Shown one piece after another: positions 15,881 to 33,170 of a stretch of 64,000 nucleotides of DNA (positions are counted from its first letter, which is position 1; every line of letters begins with the position of its first letter). Made by a program: the position numbers and the translations under genes. Source of the DNA: Escherichia phage vB_EcoM_MM02; sequence record MK373784.1. One strand, given 5' to 3'. The notes beneath the pieces were generated by a model. It made no database searches. It was not told the DNA's origin and saw only the letters and a program-made list of their open reading frames with translations.

Positions 15881-16078
15881 ATGTTTAAACTTCCATCGTT
15901 AATCAACGCTATTAAAGGCAATAAAAAGAAAACTGCTATCGCTGCAATAGTTGTAGGTGGCATTATTTCATGGAACTTCGGGATTGCACCATTGTTAGTT
16001 GCCCATGGTATTATAGTTCCTTCTGTTCCATTGGATACTGTAGTTGATTTGGCCTTTGCTATTATAGGGCTTGTTTAA
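15881..16078 (+). CDS. small hydrophobic protein (plus strand)
   Basis: 65 aa; strong AGGAG RBS 6 nt before ATG; predicted membrane helices; only convincing plus-strand gene in the window. Confidence 0.4.
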   Translation: MFKLPSLINAIKGNKKKTAIAAIVVGGIISWNFGIAPLLVAHGIIVPSVPLDTVVDLAFAIIGLV

Positions 16079-17097
16079 ATCTTCGAATAACGAGATAATC
16101 TCATTTTAGCATGCAACCCACTTGAAATATTCTGTTTCATATATTCTAAAATTTCTTGTGGTGTTGCATTTTCTTTCATTACCATATCATTCACATCCTT
16201 TGATCTCCATGGAGCTCGGTCCCAGAACATGACACGTTCGCCTGCATCAACTAATCGCTTCATGCGAGCTATAGTATCCGGATGCCTAGGTTCATTATCC
16301 ATTACCCATACCCGACGTTCTTTAAATGGTACCACATCTAAATCTATTGAGCCGCCTGTAATAGCGATTGCATTGGGTATGAATAAACTATCAATAGGGC
16401 CTTCCATTACCCAGACGTCTCCTTCCTTAACACGTTCAACACCATAAATTTTTGTTGCAGACTCAAACGCTTTAATAGTGATATATTTCTGAGGAGCATC
16501 TTTACGAAGTGCACGTCCTTGGAATGACTCGGCCTTCCCATCTTTATTAAAAATAGGAATAACTAAACGTGGTTCGGGAATCTCTTTCTTATACGTACCA
16601 GGTTGAATCTTGTTGACCAATTTGGGCCATTCTAATGTGAACCATAATCTGTTCCATGATTCTTTAGGAATGCATCTAGACTTAACATATTTAACAATAG
16701 GATGCTCTTCAGGCAACTTGTCCAGACGAGAACAAGACGGCAAAGAATTTATAGTCTTTTTCTCCGGTTCTGGTTTATGTTCAGGAACCTTTTCAATCTT
16801 TGGTTCCATTCTAGCTTTTTCTTTACGAACTTCCATTAGATATTCGCGATAAAGCTCTTCATCATACTCTTTTAAGTATCCGGAAATTGTATTGTGGTAT
16901 TGACAGTTATAGCAATGTACATTACCAGGAGTACCGCCATAATACCATCCGCGAGCTTTCATTGCATCTGTCTGGGAGTCGCCACAAACTGGACATCGAA
17001 ATGTTAATTTAAATGTGCTTGAATTATTGATTTGTCTAAAACGAGGTAGGTGAGAAAACGCACGATAAGCAAATTCATTATCTATCCATTCAGCCAT
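16075..17097 (-). CDS. 61: DNA primase, gene 61
   Basis: 340 aa; zinc ribbon CPVCGD...CYNCQYH; TOPRIM-like region; size and position as T4 gp61. Confidence 0.8.
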   Translation of the reverse strand: MAEWIDNEFAYRAFSHLPRFRQINNSSTFKLTFRCPVCGDSQTDAMKARGWYYGGTPGNVHCYNCQYHNTISGYLKEYDEELYREYLMEVRKEKARMEPKIEKVPEHKPEPEKKTINSLPSCSRLDKLPEEHPIVKYVKSRCIPKESWNRLWFTLEWPKLVNKIQPGTYKKEIPEPRLVIPIFNKDGKAESFQGRALRKDAPQKYITIKAFESATKIYGVERVKEGDVWVMEGPIDSLFIPNAIAITGGSIDLDVVPFKERRVWVMDNEPRHPDTIARMKRLVDAGERVMFWDRAPWRSKDVNDMVMKENATPQEILEYMKQNISSGLHAKMRLSRYSKI

Positions 17098-17136
17098 AGT
17101 ATTCTCCAGAGGCCTTAAATTAATAAGGCCATCTTA

Positions 17137-17631
17137 TCACAACTTATTAATATTTACTTTAATTCGCTTTCTTTTCTTGGAAGGAATTTGTTCGGGACCT
17201 TTATTTACAATTGCACCTGTAGTAGTTCCTGATGCAATAGCTTGAGGACTGCCACCCGAATCGCCAGCAACCATATCCTCAAATAAAGGGAGCTCTTTAA
17301 ATATTTCTTTCTGTTGTTCTTCTGTAATGTTATAGCGTGAAGCTACAGCACTCCAGGCAGACATCATTGAGGCCATTCCATTAAGACCTGGAACAGTGCT
17401 CATCATTCGCTTCATTGAACGAACTGAAGCATGAAAAGGTGTATAAGCCGCTTTCTCTTCAGGAGTAGAAGGACGTTTAAGAACACTTCCACGTTCATCG
17501 ATGATTTTGGCTTCGTATGCTTTCCATTCGGTAAAAGGTTTTTGCATTAGTCGAATAAACTTATATGCGTAAACAGAATCTATTGCAGTGTTAATAATAC
17601 CCATAGGTACCTCCTGAGTATATTTAATCAA
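17137..17631 (-). CDS. hypothetical protein (61.1 position)
   Basis: 164-aa ORF. Confidence 0.4.
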   Translation of the reverse strand: MIKYTQEVPMGIINTAIDSVYAYKFIRLMQKPFTEWKAYEAKIIDERGSVLKRPSTPEEKAAYTPFHASVRSMKRMMSTVPGLNGMASMMSAWSAVASRYNITEEQQKEIFKELPLFEDMVAGDSGGSPQAIASGTTTGAIVNKGPEQIPSKKRKRIKVNINKL

Positions 17632-17821
17632 TTACAAAGATTGCTTTGTCACCATTTATATCTGTGACTTCATATGTAGTGCCTTCATACTGTGGAATAT
17701 TCCAAATTACACCATCATTAGCTTTTACGCTAATATGGCATTGGTGTTTTGAAACAACTTCATAATCTTCAAAACTTGTAAAAACACTAATTTTAGAACC
17801 AGTGCAAATTGCAGTAGTCAT
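17624..17821 (-). CDS. hypothetical protein
   Basis: 65-aa ORF. Confidence 0.3.
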   Translation of the reverse strand: MTTAICTGSKISVFTSFEDYEVVSKHQCHISVKANDGVIWNIPQYEGTTYEVTDINGDKAIFVID

Positions 17822-17822
17822 T

Positions 17823-18482
17823 TTAACCTCGATTCATAAATGCATTAAATATTTGGTCATCAACAGAAATTTCTAATTCGACTTCAATTGCTTCAGCCTT
17901 TTCTTCAGGTGGTAATTCGTATCCACACACTACAATTTTTTCATCGATATCAAAATATATAGAAGCAATACGATTAATGTTATTTTCAGTTAAGTCCAAA
18001 TCAACATCAACATCTTTTTGGCCTACACTTAGAGGATAACTAATACGGGTTATTTTATTATCTTTAACAAAGAGTCCACCAACATACTCTGTACTACGTT
18101 TGAAGTTTACACGTTTCCGAATTGAAAGATATGATACATCTTTACCGTGAGCTCGGCTCATAGGACATAATGAATAGCTAGAATAAGAGATGTCAAATCC
18201 TACACCTTCAATATGAGCCAACGTGTCATGATTAAACCAATTATAATCATATGCCAAATCCATTATATTGTAATATGTGAAAGGCACAGGATTAACATCA
18301 TATGTTGTACCTTTAAAATCTGCCCAGGCAACGATTTCGTTATCTTTAACAATTACAAAAATTACACCAATATGGTATCCGTTATTATTTTCATTCGGCG
18401 TTATATTATAACATTGTGCATTAGGAAATTTACCATATTTAAATGGCGCATTTTTGTGCATATAATAAATCATATTATTCAC
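17823..18482 (-). CDS. hypothetical protein (61.2 position)
   Basis: 219-aa ORF; synteny only. Confidence 0.4.
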   Translation of the reverse strand: MNNMIYYMHKNAPFKYGKFPNAQCYNITPNENNNGYHIGVIFVIVKDNEIVAWADFKGTTYDVNPVPFTYYNIMDLAYDYNWFNHDTLAHIEGVGFDISYSSYSLCPMSRAHGKDVSYLSIRKRVNFKRSTEYVGGLFVKDNKITRISYPLSVGQKDVDVDLDLTENNINRIASIYFDIDEKIVVCGYELPPEEKAEAIEVELEISVDDQIFNAFMNRG

Positions 18483-18768
18483 CTGTGATTTCGGTTACGA
18501 TATCTTTGTTATCGAAATTAGGGTCACAATACAAAACATAGTTGTACTGCATGATACCGCCAGACTTAAGTTGTTCAACAACTTTATTAACCATATTAGG
18601 ACGGTCTCGTTTAGTGATGTTCATGATATCAGAGAAGATTTGTTGTTCAACATCTTCTTGATTTGCAGTCATTGACCACTCACAGAGGTCTTTATCATAA
18701 CCTGCCGTAACTGGAGCCGGTGCACATGATACTGCAAGTAAGATTGCTGCCAATGATAACTTTTTCAT
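18475..18768 (-). CDS. sp: spackle-like periplasmic protein Sp
   Basis: 97 aa; signal peptide MKKLSLAAILLAVSCAPAPVTA; GYDKDLCEWSM motif matches my memory of T4 Sp; same size. Confidence 0.6.
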   Translation of the reverse strand: MKKLSLAAILLAVSCAPAPVTAGYDKDLCEWSMTANQEDVEQQIFSDIMNITKRDRPNMVNKVVEQLKSGGIMQYNYVLYCDPNFDNKDIVTEITGE

Positions 18769-18831
18769 TTTAACTCCTTAGTTGATTTGATAGGACTACT
18801 ATACTATAGTCCATCTATAATGTAAACAAGT

Positions 18832-19080
18832 TTATTCTTTTTCGCGAATAATAATTACTTGTTGAGGCTGCTGAGCTGATTTCTTTTCGGCAACGATAGA
18901 CCAAATTAAAGTTCCAATCCAACCAACCATCGTCCAGTTAAAGAGTAAAGATACAAAGAAGATTGCTGTTGTGCTTTTTGTGCCACGAATAAGTGCGATT
19001 ACCCAAGGCAACATGTAAATGATGATTGAACCAATACCTGCGATTAAAACTGCTACTGAACTAACTACGAATAATTCCAT
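18832..19080 (-). CDS. superinfection-immunity (Imm) family membrane protein
   Basis: 82 aa, two TM helices; YMLPWVIALIRG...AIFFVSLLFNWTMVGWIGTLIWSI resembles the Imm superinfection-exclusion family. Confidence 0.5.
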   Translation of the reverse strand: MELFVVSSVAVLIAGIGSIIIYMLPWVIALIRGTKSTTAIFFVSLLFNWTMVGWIGTLIWSIVAEKKSAQQPQQVIIIREKE

Positions 19081-19141
19081 GTTAATTTCCTCTTGATTTG
19101 TTATGTTTATAGTATCTTGTTTTAACTTTGGCGTAAACCAA

Positions 19142-19510
19142 TTAATTAAATTTGTTTAAACGTTCAATACACTGGACATAGTTATTTGCGATTTGTTTCT
19201 GGGTAGGCTCTTTACCAGTGGTTTCAACATAACGAATGAATGCGATTTCAGTAGCCTGTAAGCAATGTTCTTTAACGCGTTGTTCTTTTGATAATGCTAC
19301 AGTATCAGAGTCACGATAACGTTGAGCATGGGCATCAGCTTGAATCATTCGATTACCTACAGTAACCGGGTCTTCCACTTCAACTTTAGGTTGGTCGTAC
19401 TGTTTAACATTCGGATTGTAAATCAATTGGCCAACGTTATTAGGGATAAAGCCATGGGCACCACATCCGGTTAATCCAAATACCATTGCTAAAGCGATTA
19501 ATTTTTTCAT
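19142..19510 (-). CDS. putative lipoprotein
   Basis: 122 aa; signal peptide with lipobox LTGC. Confidence 0.45.
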   Translation of the reverse strand: MKKLIALAMVFGLTGCGAHGFIPNNVGQLIYNPNVKQYDQPKVEVEDPVTVGNRMIQADAHAQRYRDSDTVALSKEQRVKEHCLQATEIAFIRYVETTGKEPTQKQIANNYVQCIERLNKFN

Positions 19511-19570
19511 TTCAATTTCCTCTGTAGTTGATAGAAAGATAGTAACACAGTATGTGGTGCTTGTAAACAG

Positions 19571-19828
19571 CTATTTTAAACTTTTTCGAAATTTGCGTTT
19601 TTCTTGACGAATCTGTCGTTTAGTCGGACGTACAGCAAATTTAACGAAGTCCACTTTGCCGTGTGGAAACTTTTCAGATGCTTCGCAGTCCATCATTAGT
19701 TCCCATCCTTCCAGAATAAGAGCTTTCCATTGTGTAGTTGATGCAAATTCGTATGTTGATGGTTTAAACACAGTTGAATACATATTATCCTCTGAAATCA
19801 GCTTCAAAAACTTTCTCGTCATTAACAA
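19571..19828 (-). CDS. hypothetical protein
   Basis: 85-aa ORF. Confidence 0.35.
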   Translation of the reverse strand: MLMTRKFLKLISEDNMYSTVFKPSTYEFASTTQWKALILEGWELMMDCEASEKFPHGKVDFVKFAVRPTKRQIRQEKRKFRKSLK

Positions 19829-19976
19829 ATGCTTTAACTAATGCTTTGTTCACTTCAGCAAGTTGTACCGTAACCCACTCGATTTCTTCGCGATCACCTG
19901 ATAACATGATATCTTTAGTGAACATCTCACCGCTTTTAAACCAACCGATAAAAGTAACTTTAGTTAATTTGCTCAT
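19785..19976 (-). CDS. dmd: Dmd antitoxin-like protein (inhibitor of host RnlA/LsoA-type toxins)
   Basis: Track ORF trimmed to ATG with GAGG RBS; MSKLTKVTFIGWFKSGEMFTKDI...AEVNKALVKAF matches my memory of T4 Dmd; position before gene 41. Confidence 0.6.
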   Translation of the reverse strand: MSKLTKVTFIGWFKSGEMFTKDIMLSGDREEIEWVTVQLAEVNKALVKAFVNDEKVFEADFRG

Positions 19977-20290
19977 ATTTCCTCGCAAAATGCCCATTCA
20001 GCGTGATAAACTGTAGCGCCTTTAGTATCATTCATTTGAACTACATCTACCGGAGAAATTACTCGATAGAGACGTGGTTCACCTCCATAAGAGCGTGCTG
20101 CTCGTCCTGCATAAATCTTTGCTAAACCGATATCTTCAGTAAAGAATACACGATCCAAGTTTTTCTTACGTCCAGTTTCAGACAGAACTCCTGTTTCTTC
20201 AGGAGGACAAAGCATGTTTTCGATGTTAGCTGAACTACTTGAACCGTGATAAAAAATCTTAAATTCTGCTTTACAATCGATGGTTTTCAT
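19973..20290 (-). CDS. hypothetical protein
   Basis: 105-aa ORF; RBS GGAG lies inside one arm of a 12-bp inverted repeat. Confidence 0.4.
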   Translation of the reverse strand: MKTIDCKAEFKIFYHGSSSSANIENMLCPPEETGVLSETGRKKNLDRVFFTEDIGLAKIYAGRAARSYGGEPRLYRVISPVDVVQMNDTKGATVYHAEWAFCEEI

Positions 20291-20296
20291 TTTGTT

Positions 20297-20345
20297 CTCC
20301 AGTAGTTGATAGGTCTATAATAACACAACTACTGGAGAAGTAAAC
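20297..20345 (-). promoter_or_regulatory. early promoter with -10 in the loop of a perfect 12-bp inverted repeat that includes the downstream RBS
   Basis: Arms ctccagtagttg (about 20297-20308) and caactactggag (about 20326-20337); -10 ataata at about 20317-20322, -35 gtaaac at about 20340-20345 on the minus strand. Confidence 0.5.
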
Positions 20346-20720
20346 TTAAAAACGTAATTTAGATACATCTGCGTTGATTTCGTTTTGGTTTGCGTCGTAT
20401 GCAATTAAACGAACTGCTTTAGATGGGTCATTCAATGCATAGAAATGATGGAACATTGCTCGAACGATATCACCATTTACGAGTTCTACCTGGATAGGAG
20501 AACCTTTTTCGAGTTGGAAATGTTCATAAGCTTTGATGGTTCGTAGATAATCAAGTTTTTGATTTCCAGCTCCAACTATTTGTACGATACGTTTGCCTGT
20601 GTTTTCCATACGAGATACAATAGTTTTAGGAGCAAGAATAACGTAGGTTGCCAGCGGAGAAACTACTTCAACAGTTGTGTTTTCGGTGATTGCAGTAAAA
20701 ATTGCTTGAGACATATTCAT
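20346..20720 (-). CDS. hypothetical protein
   Basis: 124-aa ORF. Confidence 0.4.
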   Translation of the reverse strand: MNMSQAIFTAITENTTVEVVSPLATYVILAPKTIVSRMENTGKRIVQIVGAGNQKLDYLRTIKAYEHFQLEKGSPIQVELVNGDIVRAMFHHFYALNDPSKAVRLIAYDANQNEINADVSKLRF

Positions 20721-20786
20721 AATGTTTTCCTCTTGGTTGGTATAAGTACATCATATCATGCCTAGAGGAAGATGTAAACCCCGAAA

Positions 20787-20807
20787 GGAGACCGAAGTCT
20801 CCTTTTT
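20787..20807. terminator. GC hairpin (ggagac cgaa gtctcc) with T-run, immediately downstream of gene 41
   Basis: T5 tract follows the hairpin on the plus strand; U-rich but interrupted tract on the minus strand; orientation ambiguous. Confidence 0.35.
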
Positions 20808-20808
20808 A

Positions 20809-22251
20809 TTAAAATTTTAACTCATTGGCTAAGCTATCTAGGTCAGCACGTGTTGCTTTGGCTTTACCTACGCGTTCCGTACGATTCACCTCTGCCTGAC
20901 GCATCTGAGCACCTGCGTTTTCATTTACTGTGTTAGGTGTGTTCATGCCTTCTTGCTCAATCTCAACCCATTTCTGATTGCCTTTACGTACACCCATCAG
21001 GAATTTATTCCACTTATTCTTATCGCCGTATCGTGATTTGATTTGTTTGATAAGTTGTTGTTCAGCTTGGGCAAGTTCTTCGGTTTCAATTACAGCCAAC
21101 ATGAAATCTGCCGTTGCTGGTAAACCTGCTGATTCTGCGATATCACTCATGTTCATGTCTGAAGCATCCCATGCTGCACGTCCTACTTGAGCTGCAGTCC
21201 ATAGAACTGTTTCAGATTCTACTGCTAATGCACGAAGTTCTTCTGCGATAGCTTTAACTAATGTGTAGCTATTTTCAGTGTAAACTCTGATACGACAAGA
21301 CCCACAAATACCTAAGTAATCAACCATGATTACAGATGGCACAAAGTTCTTCTTAAGTTTTAACTCATTAAGCAATGCACGAAATGTATTAGCGTTAGCT
21401 CCACCAGTAGGATACTGTTTAACTACTAAACGTCCTAATGTTGTTTTTGAACGCCATTTTTCCATCTTGGCTTTATATTCAGCATAAGATACGTTACCAT
21501 CATCGATATCATCGAGTGATACGTCAAGCATGTTTGCATCTATACGCTTAGCACAAACTTCTTCAGCCATTTCCATGGAAATATAAAGAACATTATGACC
21601 TGTTTGAAGATAATCTGCAGCAAGTGAACAAAGGCCTAAAGATTTACCGACGTTAACACCAGCCATTAAAACGTTTAGTGTACCTGTTTCTGCGCCGCCT
21701 TTGGTGATTTTATTCAAAATGTTTAATTTGAACGGGACCTTACGTGCTTTATTTAGATAAGAAAGCCAGCGTGCTTCGTAGTCTTCCATCCAGTCATGTC
21801 CAACATAACTATCGAACGAAATTGAAAGTGCTTGACGCATAATATCAGGAATAGCTCCTACGTCAGGCATTTTCTTGTTACGTTGTTCTGGAGGTAGTTC
21901 AGCATTAGACTGAATCTCAATGATTTTGGATGTAGCATTATACATCGCTTTTTGCTGGACATATTTCTCAGTTTCTTTAACCAACCACTCATGGTCTTCA
22001 GGAGTATCAGCCAATTTTTCAATTAGGTCTGAAGTTCCTTTATATTCGGCTTCAGTTAAAGAACTGTTATCTAAAGCCACCTTTAACGCATTGATAGATG
22101 GCATTGCATTATATTCGTTAACGTGGCTCTTTATAATTTTAAAGACATTTTTTGCCGGTCCACGCTCAAAATACTCAGAATCCATATAAGGCCAGACCTT
22201 AGAAAAATAAGCCTGGTCATATACTAGATGAGACAAAATAATTTCTACCAC
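20809..22251 (-). CDS. 41: replicative DnaB-like helicase, gene 41
   Basis: 480 aa; Walker A GVNVGKS; size and synteny as T4 gp41. Confidence 0.9.
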   Translation of the reverse strand: MVEIILSHLVYDQAYFSKVWPYMDSEYFERGPAKNVFKIIKSHVNEYNAMPSINALKVALDNSSLTEAEYKGTSDLIEKLADTPEDHEWLVKETEKYVQQKAMYNATSKIIEIQSNAELPPEQRNKKMPDVGAIPDIMRQALSISFDSYVGHDWMEDYEARWLSYLNKARKVPFKLNILNKITKGGAETGTLNVLMAGVNVGKSLGLCSLAADYLQTGHNVLYISMEMAEEVCAKRIDANMLDVSLDDIDDGNVSYAEYKAKMEKWRSKTTLGRLVVKQYPTGGANANTFRALLNELKLKKNFVPSVIMVDYLGICGSCRIRVYTENSYTLVKAIAEELRALAVESETVLWTAAQVGRAAWDASDMNMSDIAESAGLPATADFMLAVIETEELAQAEQQLIKQIKSRYGDKNKWNKFLMGVRKGNQKWVEIEQEGMNTPNTVNENAGAQMRQAEVNRTERVGKAKATRADLDSLANELKF

Positions 22252-22260
22252 GATAACTCC

Positions 22261-22623
22261 TTAAAAGAATTTAAATTTTTTCTTGGTCCGTTCATTAAAA
22301 GCTTGTTGTACTTGCATTGTAACACATTTTTCAACATGTGGTGCAAGTTCTGCTTTTCTGTCCTGGTCAAGAACTGCAAAGTCCATTACGATTTTACCAT
22401 CAACCCAGTCTAGTTTTGTAATATAGACTATATGATGGGAACCGTCTTCAAGTGTAATCAGAATCTCTTGAATGACATTTTCCATTGCTGAACGGACAAT
22501 TTTAAGAGATTCATTAAACACTCGTTCTTTGCGAATGTCCTCCCCTTCCGAAGAAGGGGATTCATCAACGATTTCTAGATTTAAATCATCGAGATTATTC
22601 ATCGAAATCTTCCATTTCGTCAA
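22261..22623 (-). CDS. hypothetical protein (gene 40 position)
   Basis: 120 aa, between 41 and uvsX as T4 gene 40; no motif. Confidence 0.4.
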   Translation of the reverse strand: MTKWKISMNNLDDLNLEIVDESPSSEGEDIRKERVFNESLKIVRSAMENVIQEILITLEDGSHHIVYITKLDWVDGKIVMDFAVLDQDRKAELAPHVEKCVTMQVQQAFNERTKKKFKFF

Positions 22624-27529: not shown

Positions 27530-27931
27530 TTATAGATTAGGTTTATATGATTTAAATGTTTCGAATCCGCCTTTATTCATAAGAGCTTTGAATTCGTCAG
27601 GACGCATAGCTTTGTCGTCGATAATCCAATCATATACTGGTTTATGTGTTAGCAAATTATGGTACTTCAAACCAATGTTTTCCAAGTTCTGAATCAGACT
27701 TGGGAGAATGTCAATTGCTATACGTCCAGGACCTACTGACTTCATACCGCGAGCAGTGTAAAGCGTTATGGTATGCCCTGCATCATACAGGGCATTAATG
27801 GCAGACACCATTTCGACGTCCGGTTTGAAGTTCACGTAATCACGATTGTTATTCCACTCTGTTATACAATCATCGACATCAAAACAAAGATTAAGCATGT
27901 TTTCTACACGGTGCATTAGATTCGTTCCCAT
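27530..27931 (-). CDS. HAD-superfamily phosphatase (KdsC-like small sugar-phosphate phosphatase)
   Basis: 133 aa; motif I FDVDDCIT (DxDx[T/V]), Thr motif ITLYTAR, C-terminal K...DD (HKPVYDWIIDDK). Confidence 0.55.
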   Translation of the reverse strand: MGTNLMHRVENMLNLCFDVDDCITEWNNNRDYVNFKPDVEMVSAINALYDAGHTITLYTARGMKSVGPGRIAIDILPSLIQNLENIGLKYHNLLTHKPVYDWIIDDKAMRPDEFKALMNKGGFETFKSYKPNL

Positions 27932-29601
27932 TGATGAGTGATATCGCCACCGATTGGACGATAGGAAACACCAGTTTCTTTATCAGTTAGTACCCATTTA
28001 CCAGGATTTTTTGTAATCAGAGTAGCCGTTACAGGTTCTGCTACGTCATAACTAATAGAGCCGTCTTGAAGTACACGGCCCATGTTACGTAATTGCTTAG
28101 TCAGAAGTTCCATACCTTTATAATATGCGGCTACCGCTTTAAGTGGATTATTCTTGAAATAACCACCTAATGCAATCCAGATAATTGCTACAGCCAAATG
28201 ATGATACTCGTTAAACGAACTCATCTTTCCATATTTGTAAACTAATGGATTGATGTTAATAGTCACATTACAAGTTGTTTCGTCAATAGTAAACTGTCCC
28301 CAGGTCGGATTAGCGTTGAATTCATCATAACCTGAAACAGCATAAAGCACTTTAGCTTCATCATACAATTTTGGCCCATAAATCTTGGTTTCGCCAAAAT
28401 ATCCACGAGGGTCGATAAACTTGACTTCGCCGTTATCAGTAATCATAGTATTACTGAAGTTCGGGTCACCATGAATAACAGAGTACTGTCCCTGAGAACG
28501 GTTATGATAACGAATAAGGTGTTCTAAAGCTTGTTTCAACATTGGCTTCAGACGTCCAATCTTAGTGTAGTTCACATGTGTGATTTTACCAAATGAATCA
28601 ATCAATGGTTGAATGCTTTCACAACGATCAATAACTTTCGTATAGAATTCTTTAGTGAAATCACGACGAACAGTTTCAGGACTTACAAAATAAGTGTCTG
28701 TGCTGAATTTCAGTGCATCTAAAATTGCATCAACAATTTGTGGACGAGCAAGACTTGATTTGGATTTAATATATTCAAATGCCGGCTTACCTTTAATGCG
28801 TTCCATTTCAAAGTTATTTTCATTAACAGAAACTAACTGAGGAACTGAATCTGATTTCACTTTAAGATACCATGAAATCTCATCTTTCTGAAGAGCTCGA
28901 CCCTGTTCGGTTAATGCGAATTTAGTTACAGTTTCTTCACCAATTTCAACTGCATTAAAACTACGATTAAGTTCACGAACTTCATGAGCTTTTTCAAGTT
29001 TAGGCATATCACCTAAATCAATTAGATTCATAAGCTCTGATTTATTGAATGCGCTGCCGTAAAGGAATTCTACGAAATCGCGTCCTTTGCAGTATTCATG
29101 AATTTCCTCATCGGTAGAACCCATATAGAATTCCCAGTCTTTGAACTGATAAATTCCTACAACATTACCACCTGTTGAACCTACGTTAGTGATATTTTCA
29201 CCGTCGAAATTATATCGACATTCGTCACCCTTAACATAGATTGCGTTAACATTCCAAGACCATGAACCAAAATCGGGAATAATATCACACCAGTTAACAA
29301 TTACATTATGGCCGTCTAAATCTTTGTGTAATTTAGCAAGAGCATAAGCAGAACCGTACGCTTCATCAACTGTACGAATAGTCACATTGAACCCTTCTTG
29401 CTCACAATAAGCTCGAACAGTTTCAGCAAATTTTGAATGAACTACTACAATAATTTCATCTGCGCCAAGGTCAGAATAAATTGTATACAAATTGCTCAGA
29501 ATAGTGTCTTGTTTATAGTTAACAAGCACCTTAGGAATATGATGCGTTATTGGATATAAACGAGTCGCCAGTCCAGCACCAAGAATAACAGCTTTTTTCA
29601 T
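27916..29601 (-). CDS. bifunctional sugar-1-phosphate nucleotidyltransferase / anomeric sugar kinase (APH-like)
   Basis: 561 aa; N-terminal NTP-transferase signature AVILGAGLATRLYP; C-terminal kinase motifs HGDPNFSNTMI...FIDPRG (Brenner HxDxxxxN plus DFG-like), as in AmgK/NahK-type kinases. Confidence 0.65.
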   Translation of the reverse strand: MKKAVILGAGLATRLYPITHHIPKVLVNYKQDTILSNLYTIYSDLGADEIIVVVHSKFAETVRAYCEQEGFNVTIRTVDEAYGSAYALAKLHKDLDGHNVIVNWCDIIPDFGSWSWNVNAIYVKGDECRYNFDGENITNVGSTGGNVVGIYQFKDWEFYMGSTDEEIHEYCKGRDFVEFLYGSAFNKSELMNLIDLGDMPKLEKAHEVRELNRSFNAVEIGEETVTKFALTEQGRALQKDEISWYLKVKSDSVPQLVSVNENNFEMERIKGKPAFEYIKSKSSLARPQIVDAILDALKFSTDTYFVSPETVRRDFTKEFYTKVIDRCESIQPLIDSFGKITHVNYTKIGRLKPMLKQALEHLIRYHNRSQGQYSVIHGDPNFSNTMITDNGEVKFIDPRGYFGETKIYGPKLYDEAKVLYAVSGYDEFNANPTWGQFTIDETTCNVTININPLVYKYGKMSSFNEYHHLAVAIIWIALGGYFKNNPLKAVAAYYKGMELLTKQLRNMGRVLQDGSISYDVAEPVTATLITKNPGKWVLTDKETGVSYRPIGGDITHQWERI

Positions 29602-29782
29602 GTTGAAGTCCTCATTGGTAAGTAGGAGTATTGTACACTATTCTAGTTAAAGCATTCATACTTTGCTTGTAGTCCAATCATAATCCATCCAATTACAAGT
29701 GTTGGAATCATTACTGGAGCCGTTAAGCTCCAGTAGATAGTCATGACAAGCATCAATAGTAAAAGTCCTATTGTTATTGCTT

Positions 29783-30418
29783 TCATTGTTCGCCTCGTAA
29801 CATGGCACCTAGTGCACCGCCTGGATGGAACTTAAGGAAATCATTAGAGGTAAATCCACGTTCAGACGAAAGGTTGATAGCGAACGTATCGATAAGCGCT
29901 AACAACAATGTAGTAGACATTGTCGGAGCTAAAGAGTTCTCGTCAACTTCTACCGCGATACCGGTGCAGAACGTATAATCAAAAAGAGCTTCGTATTCTT
30001 GTGGAATGTCAGGGTTACAATGTAACAGAATCTGTTTAACCTGAGGACGAATCATACGAAGATGTTTAGCAACACCTATCATTTCTTCAGTCTTACCAGA
30101 ACGACTGATGTGAACTAATACATCATTAGGTGCAATAAATCCTGCGTCACCATGAGAATAATGCCCGGTGTTCAAATACATGCTAGGAATACCTAGTGAA
30201 GCAAAAGTCTCGGAAGCTTTAGTTGCGATATTAGCATTCTTACCAACACCTGTAATAATTACCCGGCTTTCATAATTACTAAGTCCAGGGCGTCGAAGAG
30301 TTTCTAGAATAGCATTATAACGAGCAGGGTTTTGACTAATTACTTTAGCCATAGTGGCAAGAGATGAAGCTTGTTTTACGATTGCGTCAATAGCGATAGT
30401 AATAGGAGTAGTTTTCAT
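29783..30418 (-). CDS. SIS-domain sugar-phosphate isomerase (arabinose-5-phosphate isomerase KdsD/GutQ-like)
   Basis: 211 aa; SIS motifs ITGVGKNANIATKASETFASLGIP and HISRSGKTEE; no CBS domains. Confidence 0.7.
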   Translation of the reverse strand: MKTTPITIAIDAIVKQASSLATMAKVISQNPARYNAILETLRRPGLSNYESRVIITGVGKNANIATKASETFASLGIPSMYLNTGHYSHGDAGFIAPNDVLVHISRSGKTEEMIGVAKHLRMIRPQVKQILLHCNPDIPQEYEALFDYTFCTGIAVEVDENSLAPTMSTTLLLALIDTFAINLSSERGFTSNDFLKFHPGGALGAMLRGEQ

Positions 30419-30458: not shown

Positions 30459-33170
30459 TCAAAAATCAAACATATCGAACAGAGATGCTTTCTTCTCGTA
30501 ATCGAGTTTAGCTGCTGATGTGAATCCTTCAAGTGGTTTAATAAATGTCTTCTCAAGGAGAACAGTGTAGTCCATCCAATGAAGTACATCGTCTTTAATT
30601 AAATCTGTGATTTCAGTACCAGAAGGCCATGCGATACATTTATCACCGAATGGGTTTCCTTCACGTAAAGGCAGAACATATACTTTTTCACCTTCTACAA
30701 CTTGTGGTGCATCAATATTACCTTTGATAGCTCGGTTATATGTCAGAATTCCACGAATATGGAACGGACATTTAGGACCAGGGAATCCACCGACATCATA
30801 TTTAGCAATGTTATTCGCAGAAGATACCGACGCGATGCTAATATAATTCAATTGACGGAATTCTTTTTCAAACTCTTTAAAATATTCTTGTAATGATTCT
30901 TCACCTTCTTGAAGCATACGACGAATACATTCTTTAAGAGCTTTCTGTACTGCTTTAGGGGTCGAAGATTTCTGAGTCTCTAGACCCATGATTTTGAGTT
31001 TAGGCTCAGCGTAACGAGTGCCTTCCATATCCCACACGTTTAATGCATAACGTTTCTTACCAGTCCAGAATCCACCAATACCTTTAGAACCGAGCGGAGG
31101 ACCAGCGATAGCTTCTCGGTCCATGAACATTAAGTGTTGTTTATTGTTCATGTATTCACACATTTCACGGAAACCTTTATCAATAGCAGGTTCCATACGT
31201 TCACGTGCAAACTTATCTAAGAAGTCTACCCAATGGTTGGTATCACGGAATTTAGATTCACCAACCTTATCAATAATTTTATCCGCAGATACGTAAATGG
31301 AGTCTGTATCACCATAAAGAACGAAAGCTTCACCTTCTGTACCACAAACTTCATTCAGATATTCATTAACTTTACGTTCAATCCACTGTAAAGCCATTTG
31401 CCCGAATGTTGTGATTGCAGTAGCATTACGCAAATCATAATAACGGAACCAAACGTTGCCAAGTGCACCATAAAGTGAGTTGATGAGCAATTTACGGTTA
31501 ATTTGTGCAGTCATACCTGCAACTTCAGTACGTTGAGCTCTAAACAACATTTCATTAAGAGATTTAGCAGACAACTTTTTAATCTTTTCTTTAATCTCAT
31601 CGCTGAAGTCGAAACGATAATCAACATCTAATGGTTCGTCAACAGAAAGATTAGGATTATGCAATGCCTCTTTAATTATTTCACCATTACGTTGAGCTGC
31701 AAGCATGTAACCTTTATGTTCTTTACGTTGATTAAAGACCTTAGTGATTTCAGTTGGAACTACACCATCACGGTCTTTATAATACATCATGCCGTTAGGA
31801 GAACAACTGTACACATCTGAAGGACGTTCAGCGATTGCGTTAATATAATCATGTAATGGAGCTACTTTAAACGTTCCTGCTATTGTTTCTGGGCTAATAT
31901 TCACTTGGCGAATGATGCTTGGATACAGAGATGTAAGGTCGAAACTCATTACATATTTGTATCGATTTGGAATAGGTTCCTTAACAAAAGCGCCAGGATA
32001 AGGTTGAACCGGGTGAGAACGACCTTGTGGAATCACCTTGTTCTGCTCTTTAAGGCTATTAAAAATAATAGCATCCCATGTTTTAATTGGGCTAAACACA
32101 GATTGAATCTGTATCTTAGCATAATAACCCATGTCCAAACTCAAGTTGATGAACTGACGCTTAGCATCAATTTGCAATACACGATACACATCGATAATGT
32201 TATAAGAAATATATCGTTGGTGATTGCTTTCACGAAGTTTAGAAATAGGGCCGTCATATTTCAGTTTACCAACGTTCAATTCAAATTCTGAAATGTAATC
32301 CAGAGAATACGACGGTTGATTGGTAAAAGAGAATTTTTTGTAAAGGTCAATGTAATCAAGAACAGAGATACCGAACAATGTAATGATTTCACGAGAACCA
32401 TACATGTTTTCGATAACTTTAACACGAGTTTTACGATGCGGCGATAAACGTTTCGCAGTAGATTCGCCAAAAATATTCTTGATTCGGTTATACACATATG
32501 GAATATCAAATGACTCAACGTTCCATCCAGTCAAAATGACAGGAGTTTTCTGTTGCCAGAAGTTGAGATATTCCATCAACAATTCTTTTTCGTTATCGAA
32601 CGGCATATAAATGATTTTATCGATAATTTCAGATGGAACTTCATCACCGCCTTGTTCTTGAAGCTTAGCAGCGATTTCAATAGACCATTCTTCTACATTA
32701 CCATATGGAGAATTCAATAGATCAAATACGTAGAACCTGTCGTCAATTGAGTCATAATGGGTGATAGCATCAATCGGATGTTTTGCTTGTGACGGCTCAG
32801 GGAACCCGTCCGGAGATGTTACTTCGATGTCGAAGTTAGCCACACGAATTTTTGTATGGTCGTATTTGATTTCATAGTTATAAGTGTCAGACAAATACGC
32901 CAATTTGAAATCGTCCATGCCAAGTGCTTCAAGTCCGATATCTTCCATGCGTTTAATCCATTGGGAGGCATCACGCATATTAGCGAACAACTTACGAGTA
33001 CACGGCTTACCGTAGATATCGAAATATTTCGTAGCCTGACTTTCCGGACAATGAGCAAACAGTGATGGTTTATATTCTACTTCACGAGTACGTTCACGGC
33101 CATTAGAATCGATGTAACGTTCAAAAATTGAATCACCAATCTGTTCAACCGTTAAGTAAAATTCTTTCAT
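30459..33170 (-). CDS. 43: family B DNA polymerase with 3'-5' exonuclease, gene 43
   Basis: 903 aa; Exo motifs FDIEV, YNIIDVY; Pol motifs DFTSLYPSII, KILINSLYGALG, YGDTDS; sequence matches my memory of the RB69-type polymerase. Confidence 0.97.
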   Translation of the reverse strand: MKEFYLTVEQIGDSIFERYIDSNGRERTREVEYKPSLFAHCPESQATKYFDIYGKPCTRKLFANMRDASQWIKRMEDIGLEALGMDDFKLAYLSDTYNYEIKYDHTKIRVANFDIEVTSPDGFPEPSQAKHPIDAITHYDSIDDRFYVFDLLNSPYGNVEEWSIEIAAKLQEQGGDEVPSEIIDKIIYMPFDNEKELLMEYLNFWQQKTPVILTGWNVESFDIPYVYNRIKNIFGESTAKRLSPHRKTRVKVIENMYGSREIITLFGISVLDYIDLYKKFSFTNQPSYSLDYISEFELNVGKLKYDGPISKLRESNHQRYISYNIIDVYRVLQIDAKRQFINLSLDMGYYAKIQIQSVFSPIKTWDAIIFNSLKEQNKVIPQGRSHPVQPYPGAFVKEPIPNRYKYVMSFDLTSLYPSIIRQVNISPETIAGTFKVAPLHDYINAIAERPSDVYSCSPNGMMYYKDRDGVVPTEITKVFNQRKEHKGYMLAAQRNGEIIKEALHNPNLSVDEPLDVDYRFDFSDEIKEKIKKLSAKSLNEMLFRAQRTEVAGMTAQINRKLLINSLYGALGNVWFRYYDLRNATAITTFGQMALQWIERKVNEYLNEVCGTEGEAFVLYGDTDSIYVSADKIIDKVGESKFRDTNHWVDFLDKFARERMEPAIDKGFREMCEYMNNKQHLMFMDREAIAGPPLGSKGIGGFWTGKKRYALNVWDMEGTRYAEPKLKIMGLETQKSSTPKAVQKALKECIRRMLQEGEESLQEYFKEFEKEFRQLNYISIASVSSANNIAKYDVGGFPGPKCPFHIRGILTYNRAIKGNIDAPQVVEGEKVYVLPLREGNPFGDKCIAWPSGTEITDLIKDDVLHWMDYTVLLEKTFIKPLEGFTSAAKLDYEKKASLFDMFDF

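Follow-up and report, generated by a model that had tools for sequence, protein, structure and literature searches.

Why is the imm gene of Escherichia phage vB_EcoM_MM02 (MK373784.1) adjacent to sp, among the early genes that separate the helicase gene 41 from the primase gene 61, whereas T4 has the order 43 > imm.1 > imm > 42? We addressed this question in a stretch of 64,000 nucleotides of this genome, referred to as the window. Judged from its sequence, the locus appears to be an RB69-type 41-61 block with T4-like functions by homology, in which the imm.1-imm pair has been relocated as a unit, a reading to which we assign a probability of about 85%. Open reading frames and profile searches place five genes at 18475-19976, listed here in transcription order:

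19785-19976, minus strand: dmd, 63 aa (Pfam PF17587, E 6.2e-22, 78.2 bits against a cut-off of 27; PHROG 2102)
19571-19783, minus strand: 61.4, a basic protein of 70 aa with its ATG at 19783 (Pfam DUF7279, PF23945, E 5e-20)
19142-19510, minus strand: imm.1 homologue, a predicted lipoprotein of 122 aa (Pfam DUF5481, PF17578, 37.3 bits against a cut-off of 27)
18832-19080, minus strand: imm, 82 aa (Pfam Imm_superinfect, PF14373, E 1.9e-15, 56.9 bits against a cut-off of 27.9; PHROG 1039)
18475-18768, minus strand: sp (spackle), 97 aa (Pfam T4_Spackle, PF25676, E 1.1e-42, 145 bits against a cut-off of 27)

All five products clear their Pfam cut-offs by a wide margin; four of them are 57-66% identical to their T4 counterparts, and the lipoprotein 32%. 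The initial annotation had proposed genes for Sp, Imm, a lipoprotein and Dmd in this interval, and all four were found on the minus strand where it had placed them; its list omitted 61.4, which is located between the lipoprotein gene and dmd. Alignment to the T4 proteins, which it had suggested as a check, yielded significant similarity for Sp (66% identity), Imm (63%) and Dmd (58%), and at sequence level these three matches are far beyond chance.

The proposed spackle identity is well founded. The Sp protein covers the PF25676 model end to end (residues 1-96 of 96), its BLASTP alignment with T4 Sp is ungapped, and it matches the PDB entries 6X6O and 7CN6. A hydrophobic N-terminal segment at residues 4-24 qualifies as an export signal. 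Cys29 and Cys81, for which a disulfide has been reported in T4 Sp (PMC7677548), are both kept, and the six T4 Sp residues that contact the gp5 lysozyme (S32, M33, T34, A35, Q37 and N76; PMC7677548) are all identical. By homology to T4, Sp would be a helical bundle exported to the periplasm, where it would inhibit the tail-tip gp5 lysozyme of superinfecting phages.

The view of Imm as an 82-aa two-helix protein likewise holds: its alignment with T4 Imm is full length (83 columns, BLASTP), and Kyte-Doolittle windows delimit two hydrophobic segments, over residues 1-34 and 40-59. The gene lacks the T4-type synteny of the 43/42 interval and sits between imm.1 and sp; synteny is, however, no defining trait of the PF14373 family, and the membership of imm is unaffected by its different position. 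As in T4, the protein should act as a two-helix inner-membrane protein which blocks DNA entry by superinfecting phages.

Dmd, previously described as Dmd-like, can be named with equal clarity, as BLASTP identity to T4 Dmd is complemented by two PDB matches, 5I8J (61 of 63 residues identical, E 3e-37), the sequence of which is that of RB69 Dmd, and 5HY3_B (E 2e-18). Homology to T4 predicts an antitoxin-type protein that would bind and neutralise the host toxin RNases RnlA and LsoA. The start of dmd overlaps the stop of an ORF040c homologue upstream. Three of the 29 family members of this homologue gave faint Pfam matches to Arr-ms and ART-PolyVal; its sequence and profile searches against the PDB returned no match, and its single-sequence AlphaFold2 model (pLDDT 41) was unusable. 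The neighbouring gp61.4 is 57% identical to residues 1-70 of T4 gp61.4 and unchanged relative to RB69 gp61.4. An NCBIfam search with ten proteins yielded nothing useful, and an Rfam scan of 16000-22500 (E <= 1) returned a single sub-threshold chance match to a miRNA family, and we propose no RNA element.

The lipoprotein gene had been recognised by its lipobox, which is indeed there (LTGC, residues 13-16; LAGC in T4 Imm.1), but its identity as Imm.1 had been missed. It scores 37.3 bits against DUF5481, for which T4 Imm.1 itself reaches 239 bits, and aligns with T4 Imm.1 at an E-value of 1e-18 (BLASTP). The gene is situated directly upstream of imm, as in T4, and its RB69 counterpart is annotated imm.1. 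Cys83 and Cys114 are invariant. With Imm.1 as query, a word-indexed protein search retrieved just three proteins, and recognisable homologues are restricted to Mosigvirus-type and Tequatrovirus-type records; metagenomes hold an intermediate form that is 46% identical. In an AlphaFold2 model built from a three-sequence alignment (mean pLDDT 61), a C-terminal helical hairpin is the only confident part, and Foldseek comparison of this model with the PDB gave no match under E = 5 and no functional lead. Profile comparison with the lipoproteins encoded upstream of imm in phages Merlin and Roth68 gave 90% probability over the first ~57 columns only; we consider this homology unproven, because the match consists mostly of signal peptide and lipobox.

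On the evidence of its sequence, the phage is an RB69-like Mosigvirus of the T4 type. Four kilobases of the window are 98.5-99.3% identical at nucleotide level to RB69 and other Mosigvirus genomes, and a nucleotide search found the identical gene arrangement in 152 records. The RB69 GenBank record of 2003 (AY303349 / NC_004928) already labels sp, imm, imm.1, 61.4 and dmd at the corresponding place. Gene content, gene order and probable functions are already known for RB69 and some 150 nearly identical phages, and the differing position of imm, which the initial annotation had rightly pointed out, has been on record since 2003.

The surroundings of gene 43 indicate where the pair came from. In five Tevenvirinae genera (that of T4, Dhakavirus, Gaprivervirus, Moonvirus and Jiaodavirus) imm follows gene 43, directly in phages Bp7 and RZ (43 > imm), and as 43 > lipoprotein > imm > 42 in Merlin and in Klebsiella Jiaodavirus-type phages. 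In T4 and Bp7, sp comes directly after 61.4 at an uninterrupted junction. The corresponding slot of the window is occupied as follows:

29643-30418, minus strand: vacated imm slot downstream of gene 43, comprising a SIS-domain gene (29783-30418, Pfam) and a small membrane-peptide gene (29643-29786)

Just downstream of gene 43, the SIS-domain gene takes the place that imm.1-imm hold in T4. The small membrane-peptide gene is conserved and follows imm in T4, Bp7 and RZ; aligned by eye, the four peptides share ...MIPT..GW...Q.KYECFN, and the RB69 record describes this slot as 'similar to T4 42-imm intercistronic region'. As previously stated, the 42-43 interval of the window contains a sugar-nucleotide module, with SIS-domain, NTP-transferase and U32-like genes. 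Bp7 retains imm after gene 43 alongside an NTP-transferase sugar gene that is 42% identical to that of the window; the sugar module and imm are therefore able to coexist. We infer that imm.1-imm left an ancestral slot downstream of the DNA polymerase gene 43 and entered the spacer between 61.4 and sp, which would have brought imm.1, imm and sp together as one uninterrupted envelope-directed cassette.

Early-promoter-like spacers of about 60 bp precede imm.1, imm and sp, one for each gene:

19511-19570, minus strand: 60-bp spacer ahead of imm.1, with a T4-early-type promoter-like motif (TTTACA, 17 nt, TACTAT) and a Shine-Dalgarno sequence
19081-19141, minus strand: 61-bp spacer ahead of imm, with a weaker early-promoter-like motif (TTTACG, 17 nt, TACTAT)
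18769-18831, minus strand: 63-bp spacer ahead of sp, with an early-promoter-like motif (TTTACA, 17 nt, TATAGT)

A promoter scan matched the spacers ahead of imm.1 (19567>19539) and sp (18826>18798), while the cassette ahead of imm stayed under the scan threshold, with 8 of 12 matches by manual count. The cassette ahead of imm.1 fits the consensus TTTACW-N17-TAYWAT of the promoter-early stem-loops (PeSLs) of T4-type phages (PMC4122927). In the spacer ahead of sp, the -10 element lies partly within a short hairpin (GGACTA...TAGTCC); clear stem-loops are confined to the spacers that precede sp, ORF040c and ORF041c. T4-type phages are known to exchange modules at promoter cassettes, as captured in the PeSL model (PMC4122927), and recombination between such repeated cassettes would most probably account for the move. 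Of 52 positions, pairs of spacers from the window and T4 agree at 12-18 where the ORF040c spacer is involved and at 20-32 in all other pairs. No specific recombination junction can be assigned, because this likeness is at the generic level of early promoters.

The initial annotation had left a choice between relocation and an extra paralog. The first is supported, in the form of a move of the imm.1-imm pair, and the second would place the true imm at another site of the genome, a reading for which no support was found in the 64 kb that the window covers. A tblastn search found one imm in the window and, among the matches listed, which include complete Mosigvirus genomes, one place per record; in total, it gave 1,235 places in 1,235 matching phage records. 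The listed complete Mosigvirus genomes that are 98-99% identical to MM02 carry one imm each, and the full-length identity of 63% to T4 Imm fits an ortholog, so that the paralog is effectively refuted. The direction of the move could also be questioned, since in the distant Straboviridae Morganella phage MP1 and Providencia phage PSTCR6 imm is directly followed by sp, which might suggest that the Mosigvirus order is ancestral and the post-43 position of T4 derived. However, the MP1 pair lies near tk and a 'lysis inhibition' gene, outside a 41-61 interval, and the PSTCR6 record annotates all flanking genes as hypothetical and lacks the 41-61 context. The post-43 position in five genera, the unbroken 61.4-sp junction shared by T4 and Bp7 and the small peptide gene, normally trailing imm, that the window keeps next to gene 43 speak against it as well. 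We rejected this very improbable scenario on the grounds of the differing contexts in MP1 and PSTCR6, the five genera and the peptide gene left behind.

Horizontal gain of the imm.1-imm cassette from an unsampled T4-like phage, with or after loss of the post-43 copy, deserves more attention, but we still regard it as unlikely. The divergence of Imm.1 from T4 (32% identity) exceeds that of the flanking Sp, gp61.4 and Dmd (57-66%) and thus leaves room for acquisition from another phage; the 46%-identical metagenomic Imm.1 and the documented promoter-cassette exchange also favour it. Imm itself, on the other hand, is as diverged from T4 as its neighbours are, as expected under vertical descent, and no donor lineage was found, with Imm.1 recognisable only in the two record types named above. 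Relocation of the resident pair therefore seems to be the better explanation.

Preservation of the pair raises the possibility that Imm.1 works together with Imm, or acts as a third exclusion factor at envelope level, and is not a passenger gene. We advance this idea tentatively, as one that is rather doubtful at present, because the imm.1-imm order survived the move, because Moonvirus and Klebsiella Jiaodavirus-type phages also have a lipoprotein gene directly upstream of imm, and because the Mosigvirus pair adjoins sp, forming a cassette for a lipoprotein, an inner-membrane protein and a periplasmic inhibitor. The separate imm-sp adjacency in the Morganella and Providencia phages hints at selection for linkage of exclusion genes. 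RB69 has been reported to lack lysis inhibition (PMC6832632), so T4 phenotypes may not transfer unchanged. Beyond correct annotation the cluster matters little; it does open an inexpensive genetic route to Imm.1, a conserved predicted lipoprotein, and it would be a tidy case of how gene modules are shuffled among T4-type genomes, with the pair beside sp and a sugar-pathway gene in the old slot.

Among known systems, the T4 Spackle-gp5 lysozyme complex (PDB 6XC0/6XC1; PMC7677548) is the structural reference for Sp: the window protein has the same length, a signal peptide, the Cys pair and the named contacts, whereas 34% of its residues are unlike those of T4 Sp. MP1 and PSTCR6 resemble the window in that sp immediately follows imm and in that the same Pfam models recognise both genes, but their neighbourhood is another one, there is no recognisable imm.1, the proteins are shorter, and imm and sp abut or overlap where the window has a promoter spacer. 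RB69 is closer, with the same gene order, spacing and names and with 0-2 residue differences in each cluster protein. These are point differences only, e.g., K44 and V51 against N44 and I51 in Dmd. Immediately beyond the cluster, the window has single open reading frames at places that are split in the old RB69 record (61.1/ORF032c and ORF052c/053c).

T4 encodes orthologs of all five genes at 32-66% identity. It shares the internal order imm.1 > imm and the outer order 41 > dmd > 61.4 ... sp > 61.2 > 61.1 > 61. It differs in its imm.1-imm gap of just 11 bp, compared to the 61-bp promoter-like spacer of the window, and in a 15-residue C-terminal tail of gp61.4 that is absent from the window protein, while two additional genes, homologues of ORF041c and ORF040c, lie between 41 and dmd in the window and not in T4.

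The limits of the gene cluster at 18475-19976 are exactly the stop codon of sp and the start codon of dmd. It lies between helicase gene 41 and primase gene 61, in the following order of transcription.

Genes of the 41-61 interval, in order of transcription
20809-22251 (-), helicase gene 41
20346-20720 (-), small ORF after gene 41
19973-20290 (-), small ORF, ORF040c homologue, 105 aa
19785-19976 (-), dmd; Pfam Dmd, 78.2 bits
19571-19783 (-), 61.4; Pfam DUF7279, 71.6 bits
19142-19510 (-), imm.1 homologue (lipoprotein gene); Pfam DUF5481, 37.3 bits
18832-19080 (-), imm; Pfam Imm_superinfect, 56.9 bits
18475-18768 (-), sp; Pfam T4_Spackle, 145 bits
17823-18473 (-), 61.2 (adfA); Pfam Anti-DarT factor A, E 2e-119
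between 61.2 and the 61.1-like ORF (-), 65-aa ORF
17137-17631 (-), 61.1-like ORF; PHROG 2086 match over residues 10-162
16075-17097 (-), primase gene 61

All five cluster proteins scored well above the Pfam threshold, each in a curated family, and the PHROGs assignments are consistent with this. Alignment to T4 (BLASTP) bore out the spackle-like, Imm-family and Dmd-like genes of the initial annotation, with identities of 66% for Sp (97/97 columns, ungapped), 63% for Imm and 58% for Dmd; gp61.4 is 57% and Imm.1 32% identical (E 1e-18). Dmd structures are known (5HY3, 5I8J), and our Dmd differs at two positions from 5I8J, whose sequence is that of RB69 Dmd; PDB matches were also found for Sp. 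Conserved in Sp are Cys29, Cys81 and S32, M33, T34, A35, Q37 and N76, the last six of which are named as gp5 lysozyme contacts in the crystal structure of T4 Sp (PMC7677548). By simple hydropathy and sequence, Sp has a single N-terminal signal-like segment, Imm two membrane segments and the lipoprotein a signal with an LTGC lipobox. Profile, alignment, residue and hydropathy evidence thus confirms the cluster, in which the initial annotation overlooked 61.4 and recognized the lipobox lipoprotein, but not its identity as an Imm.1 homologue.

In T4, Dmd neutralises the RnlA and LsoA toxins. The inner-membrane protein Imm blocks DNA entry there, as stated in RB69 and T4 record annotations. T4 Sp inhibits gp5 lysozyme (PMC7677548). 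By analogy, Dmd would neutralise RnlA/LsoA toxins early in infection, Imm would block DNA entry from the inner membrane, and Sp would be exported and then inhibit the gp5 lysozyme of later-arriving phages. RB69 is reported to lack lysis inhibition (PMC6832632), so that superinfection-linked T4 phenotypes may not all carry over.

The finding is real and mainly correct in interpretation, and it is already known. In the RB69 GenBank record and in newer ones, the five genes sp, imm, imm.1, 61.4 and dmd are already named and stand in identical order; the five RB69 proteins differ from ours by 0-2 residues each. RB69 and many further Mosigvirus genomes are 98.5-99.3% identical to the window over a 4-kb stretch, of which 152 records each cover at least 80%. 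The sole comparative point, of modest interest, is the probable relocation of imm.1-imm beside sp.

The initial annotation had proposed that imm, placed differently from T4, was either relocated or an extra paralog. The placement does differ: imm here adjoins sp, whereas T4 has the order 43 > imm.1 > imm > 42. Each cluster gene is single-copy in the window (tblastn, T4 and window proteins), and among 50,697 phage records searched Imm matched 1,235 places in 1,235 records, one in every record listed, complete Mosigvirus genomes included; the extra paralog is therefore rejected. Gene orders favour relocation. Dhakavirus Bp7 and Gaprivervirus RZ have 43 > imm, the order 43 > lipoprotein > imm > 42 is seen in Moonvirus Merlin and in Klebsiella phages of the Jiaodavirus type, and in T4 and Bp7 sp directly follows 61.4. 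On the simplest reading of these orders, imm after 43 and an uninterrupted 61.4-sp junction would be ancestral in Tevenvirinae; on the Mosigvirus stem, the imm.1-imm pair, its original order kept, would have moved to the spacer that separates 61.4 from sp.

Genes at and after gene 43
30459-33170, gene 43
29783-30418 (-), SIS-domain gene, directly after gene 43
29643-29786 (-), small hydrophobic peptide ORF, 47 codons, after the SIS-domain gene
27916-29601 (-), NTP-transferase protein, single 561-aa ORF with N-terminal NTP-transferase domain

The small-peptide ORF matches the ORF after imm in T4, Bp7 and RZ (pattern ...MIPT..GW...Q.KYECFN) and, judged by this pattern, is clearly the same. RB69 annotates it with 36 codons instead of 47 and the remark 'similar to T4 42-imm intercistronic region'; in T4 it is unannotated (NC_000866). 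Lying between gene 43 and this ORF, the SIS-domain gene occupies the exact imm.1-imm position. The small-peptide gene is still near gene 43 in this phage, though imm appears to have left. The remainder of the 42-43 interval encodes an NTP-transferase fusion protein as well as a U32-like one, so the sugar module noted there initially is present; in RB69 both are candidate genes of the arabinosyl-hmC pathway (PMC6024577). The 561-aa ORF is split into ORF053c and ORF052c in the RB69 GenBank record; our single ORF fits the proposal by Thomas et al. 2018 that there is only one gene. Bp7 has a 567-aa NTP-transferase protein (42% identical) downstream of the same small ORF and retains imm after gene 43 alongside it; the presence of the sugar module is therefore not enough by itself to displace imm.

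The spacers before imm.1, imm and sp are 60-63 bp long, and each contains a Shine-Dalgarno sequence and the motif TTTAC-N17-TAnnnT; the T4 imm.1-imm gap is only 11 bp. These motifs, weakest at imm, match the T4-type early-promoter/PeSL (promoter-early stem-loop) consensus TTTACW-N17-TAYWAT (PMC4122927), and repeated promoter cassettes are proposed substrates of modular shuffling in T4-type phages (PMC2839356, PMC4122927). Acquisition of the imm.1-imm cassette from another phage seems improbable: Imm.1 is indeed far more diverged from T4 (32%) than its neighbours (57-66%), but Imm (63%) is not. We infer that the pair may instead have moved by recombination of repeated promoter cassettes; spacer likeness is generic (20-32/52 positions, pairs without the ORF040c spacer), and spacer comparison does not assign recombination junctions.

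Directly after gene 41 (20721-20808, minus strand), a GC-rich hairpin, GGAGACTTCGGTCTCC, is followed by TTT and a promoter-like site, TTTACA-N17-TATGAT; this predicted terminator and early-promoter layout is of the PeSL type. At 20290-20344, before the ORF040c homologue, a 19-nt inverted repeat flanks another promoter-like site; the stop codon of this homologue overlaps the dmd start. Its family is conserved, with identities of 60-99%, across many T4-like phages whose hosts are Enterobacterales, Acinetobacter and Vibrio. Among 29 diverse members, H15-G16, Y60 and E103 do not vary, a pattern that resembles an H-Y-E ADP-ribosyltransferase triad; two homologues are named 'ADP-ribosyl transferase' in RefSeq. 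The family has no Pfam family and only faint Arr-ms and ART-PolyVal matches, a PDB sequence search gave no match, and AF2 run on the single sequence gave no usable model. AdfA carries Arg at residue 164 (RB69 numbering), like wild-type RB69, where T4 has His; the Arg-164 allele is reported to be unable to neutralise DarT1. The continuous ORF at 17137-17631 corresponds to two RB69-annotated genes, 61.1 and ORF032c, a split that probably reflects a sequencing difference or frameshift in that older record.

Recognisable Imm.1 homologues occur only in Mosigvirus-type (154) and Tequatrovirus-type (about 500) records. In its AF2 model, only a C-terminal helical hairpin bearing two invariant cysteines is predicted with confidence, and a fold search with the model gave no match. 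In a profile comparison, the lipoproteins encoded before imm in Merlin and the Klebsiella phages matched Imm.1 over the signal/N-terminal part alone; their equivalent position is suggestive, with homology unproven. A second instance of imm-sp linkage is found in two distant Straboviridae, Morganella phage MP1 (L010 3483-3916) and Providencia phage PSTCR6 (L012 1501-1967), where a T4_Spackle gene immediately follows an Imm_superinfect gene and the surrounding genes bear no relation to the 41-61 interval.
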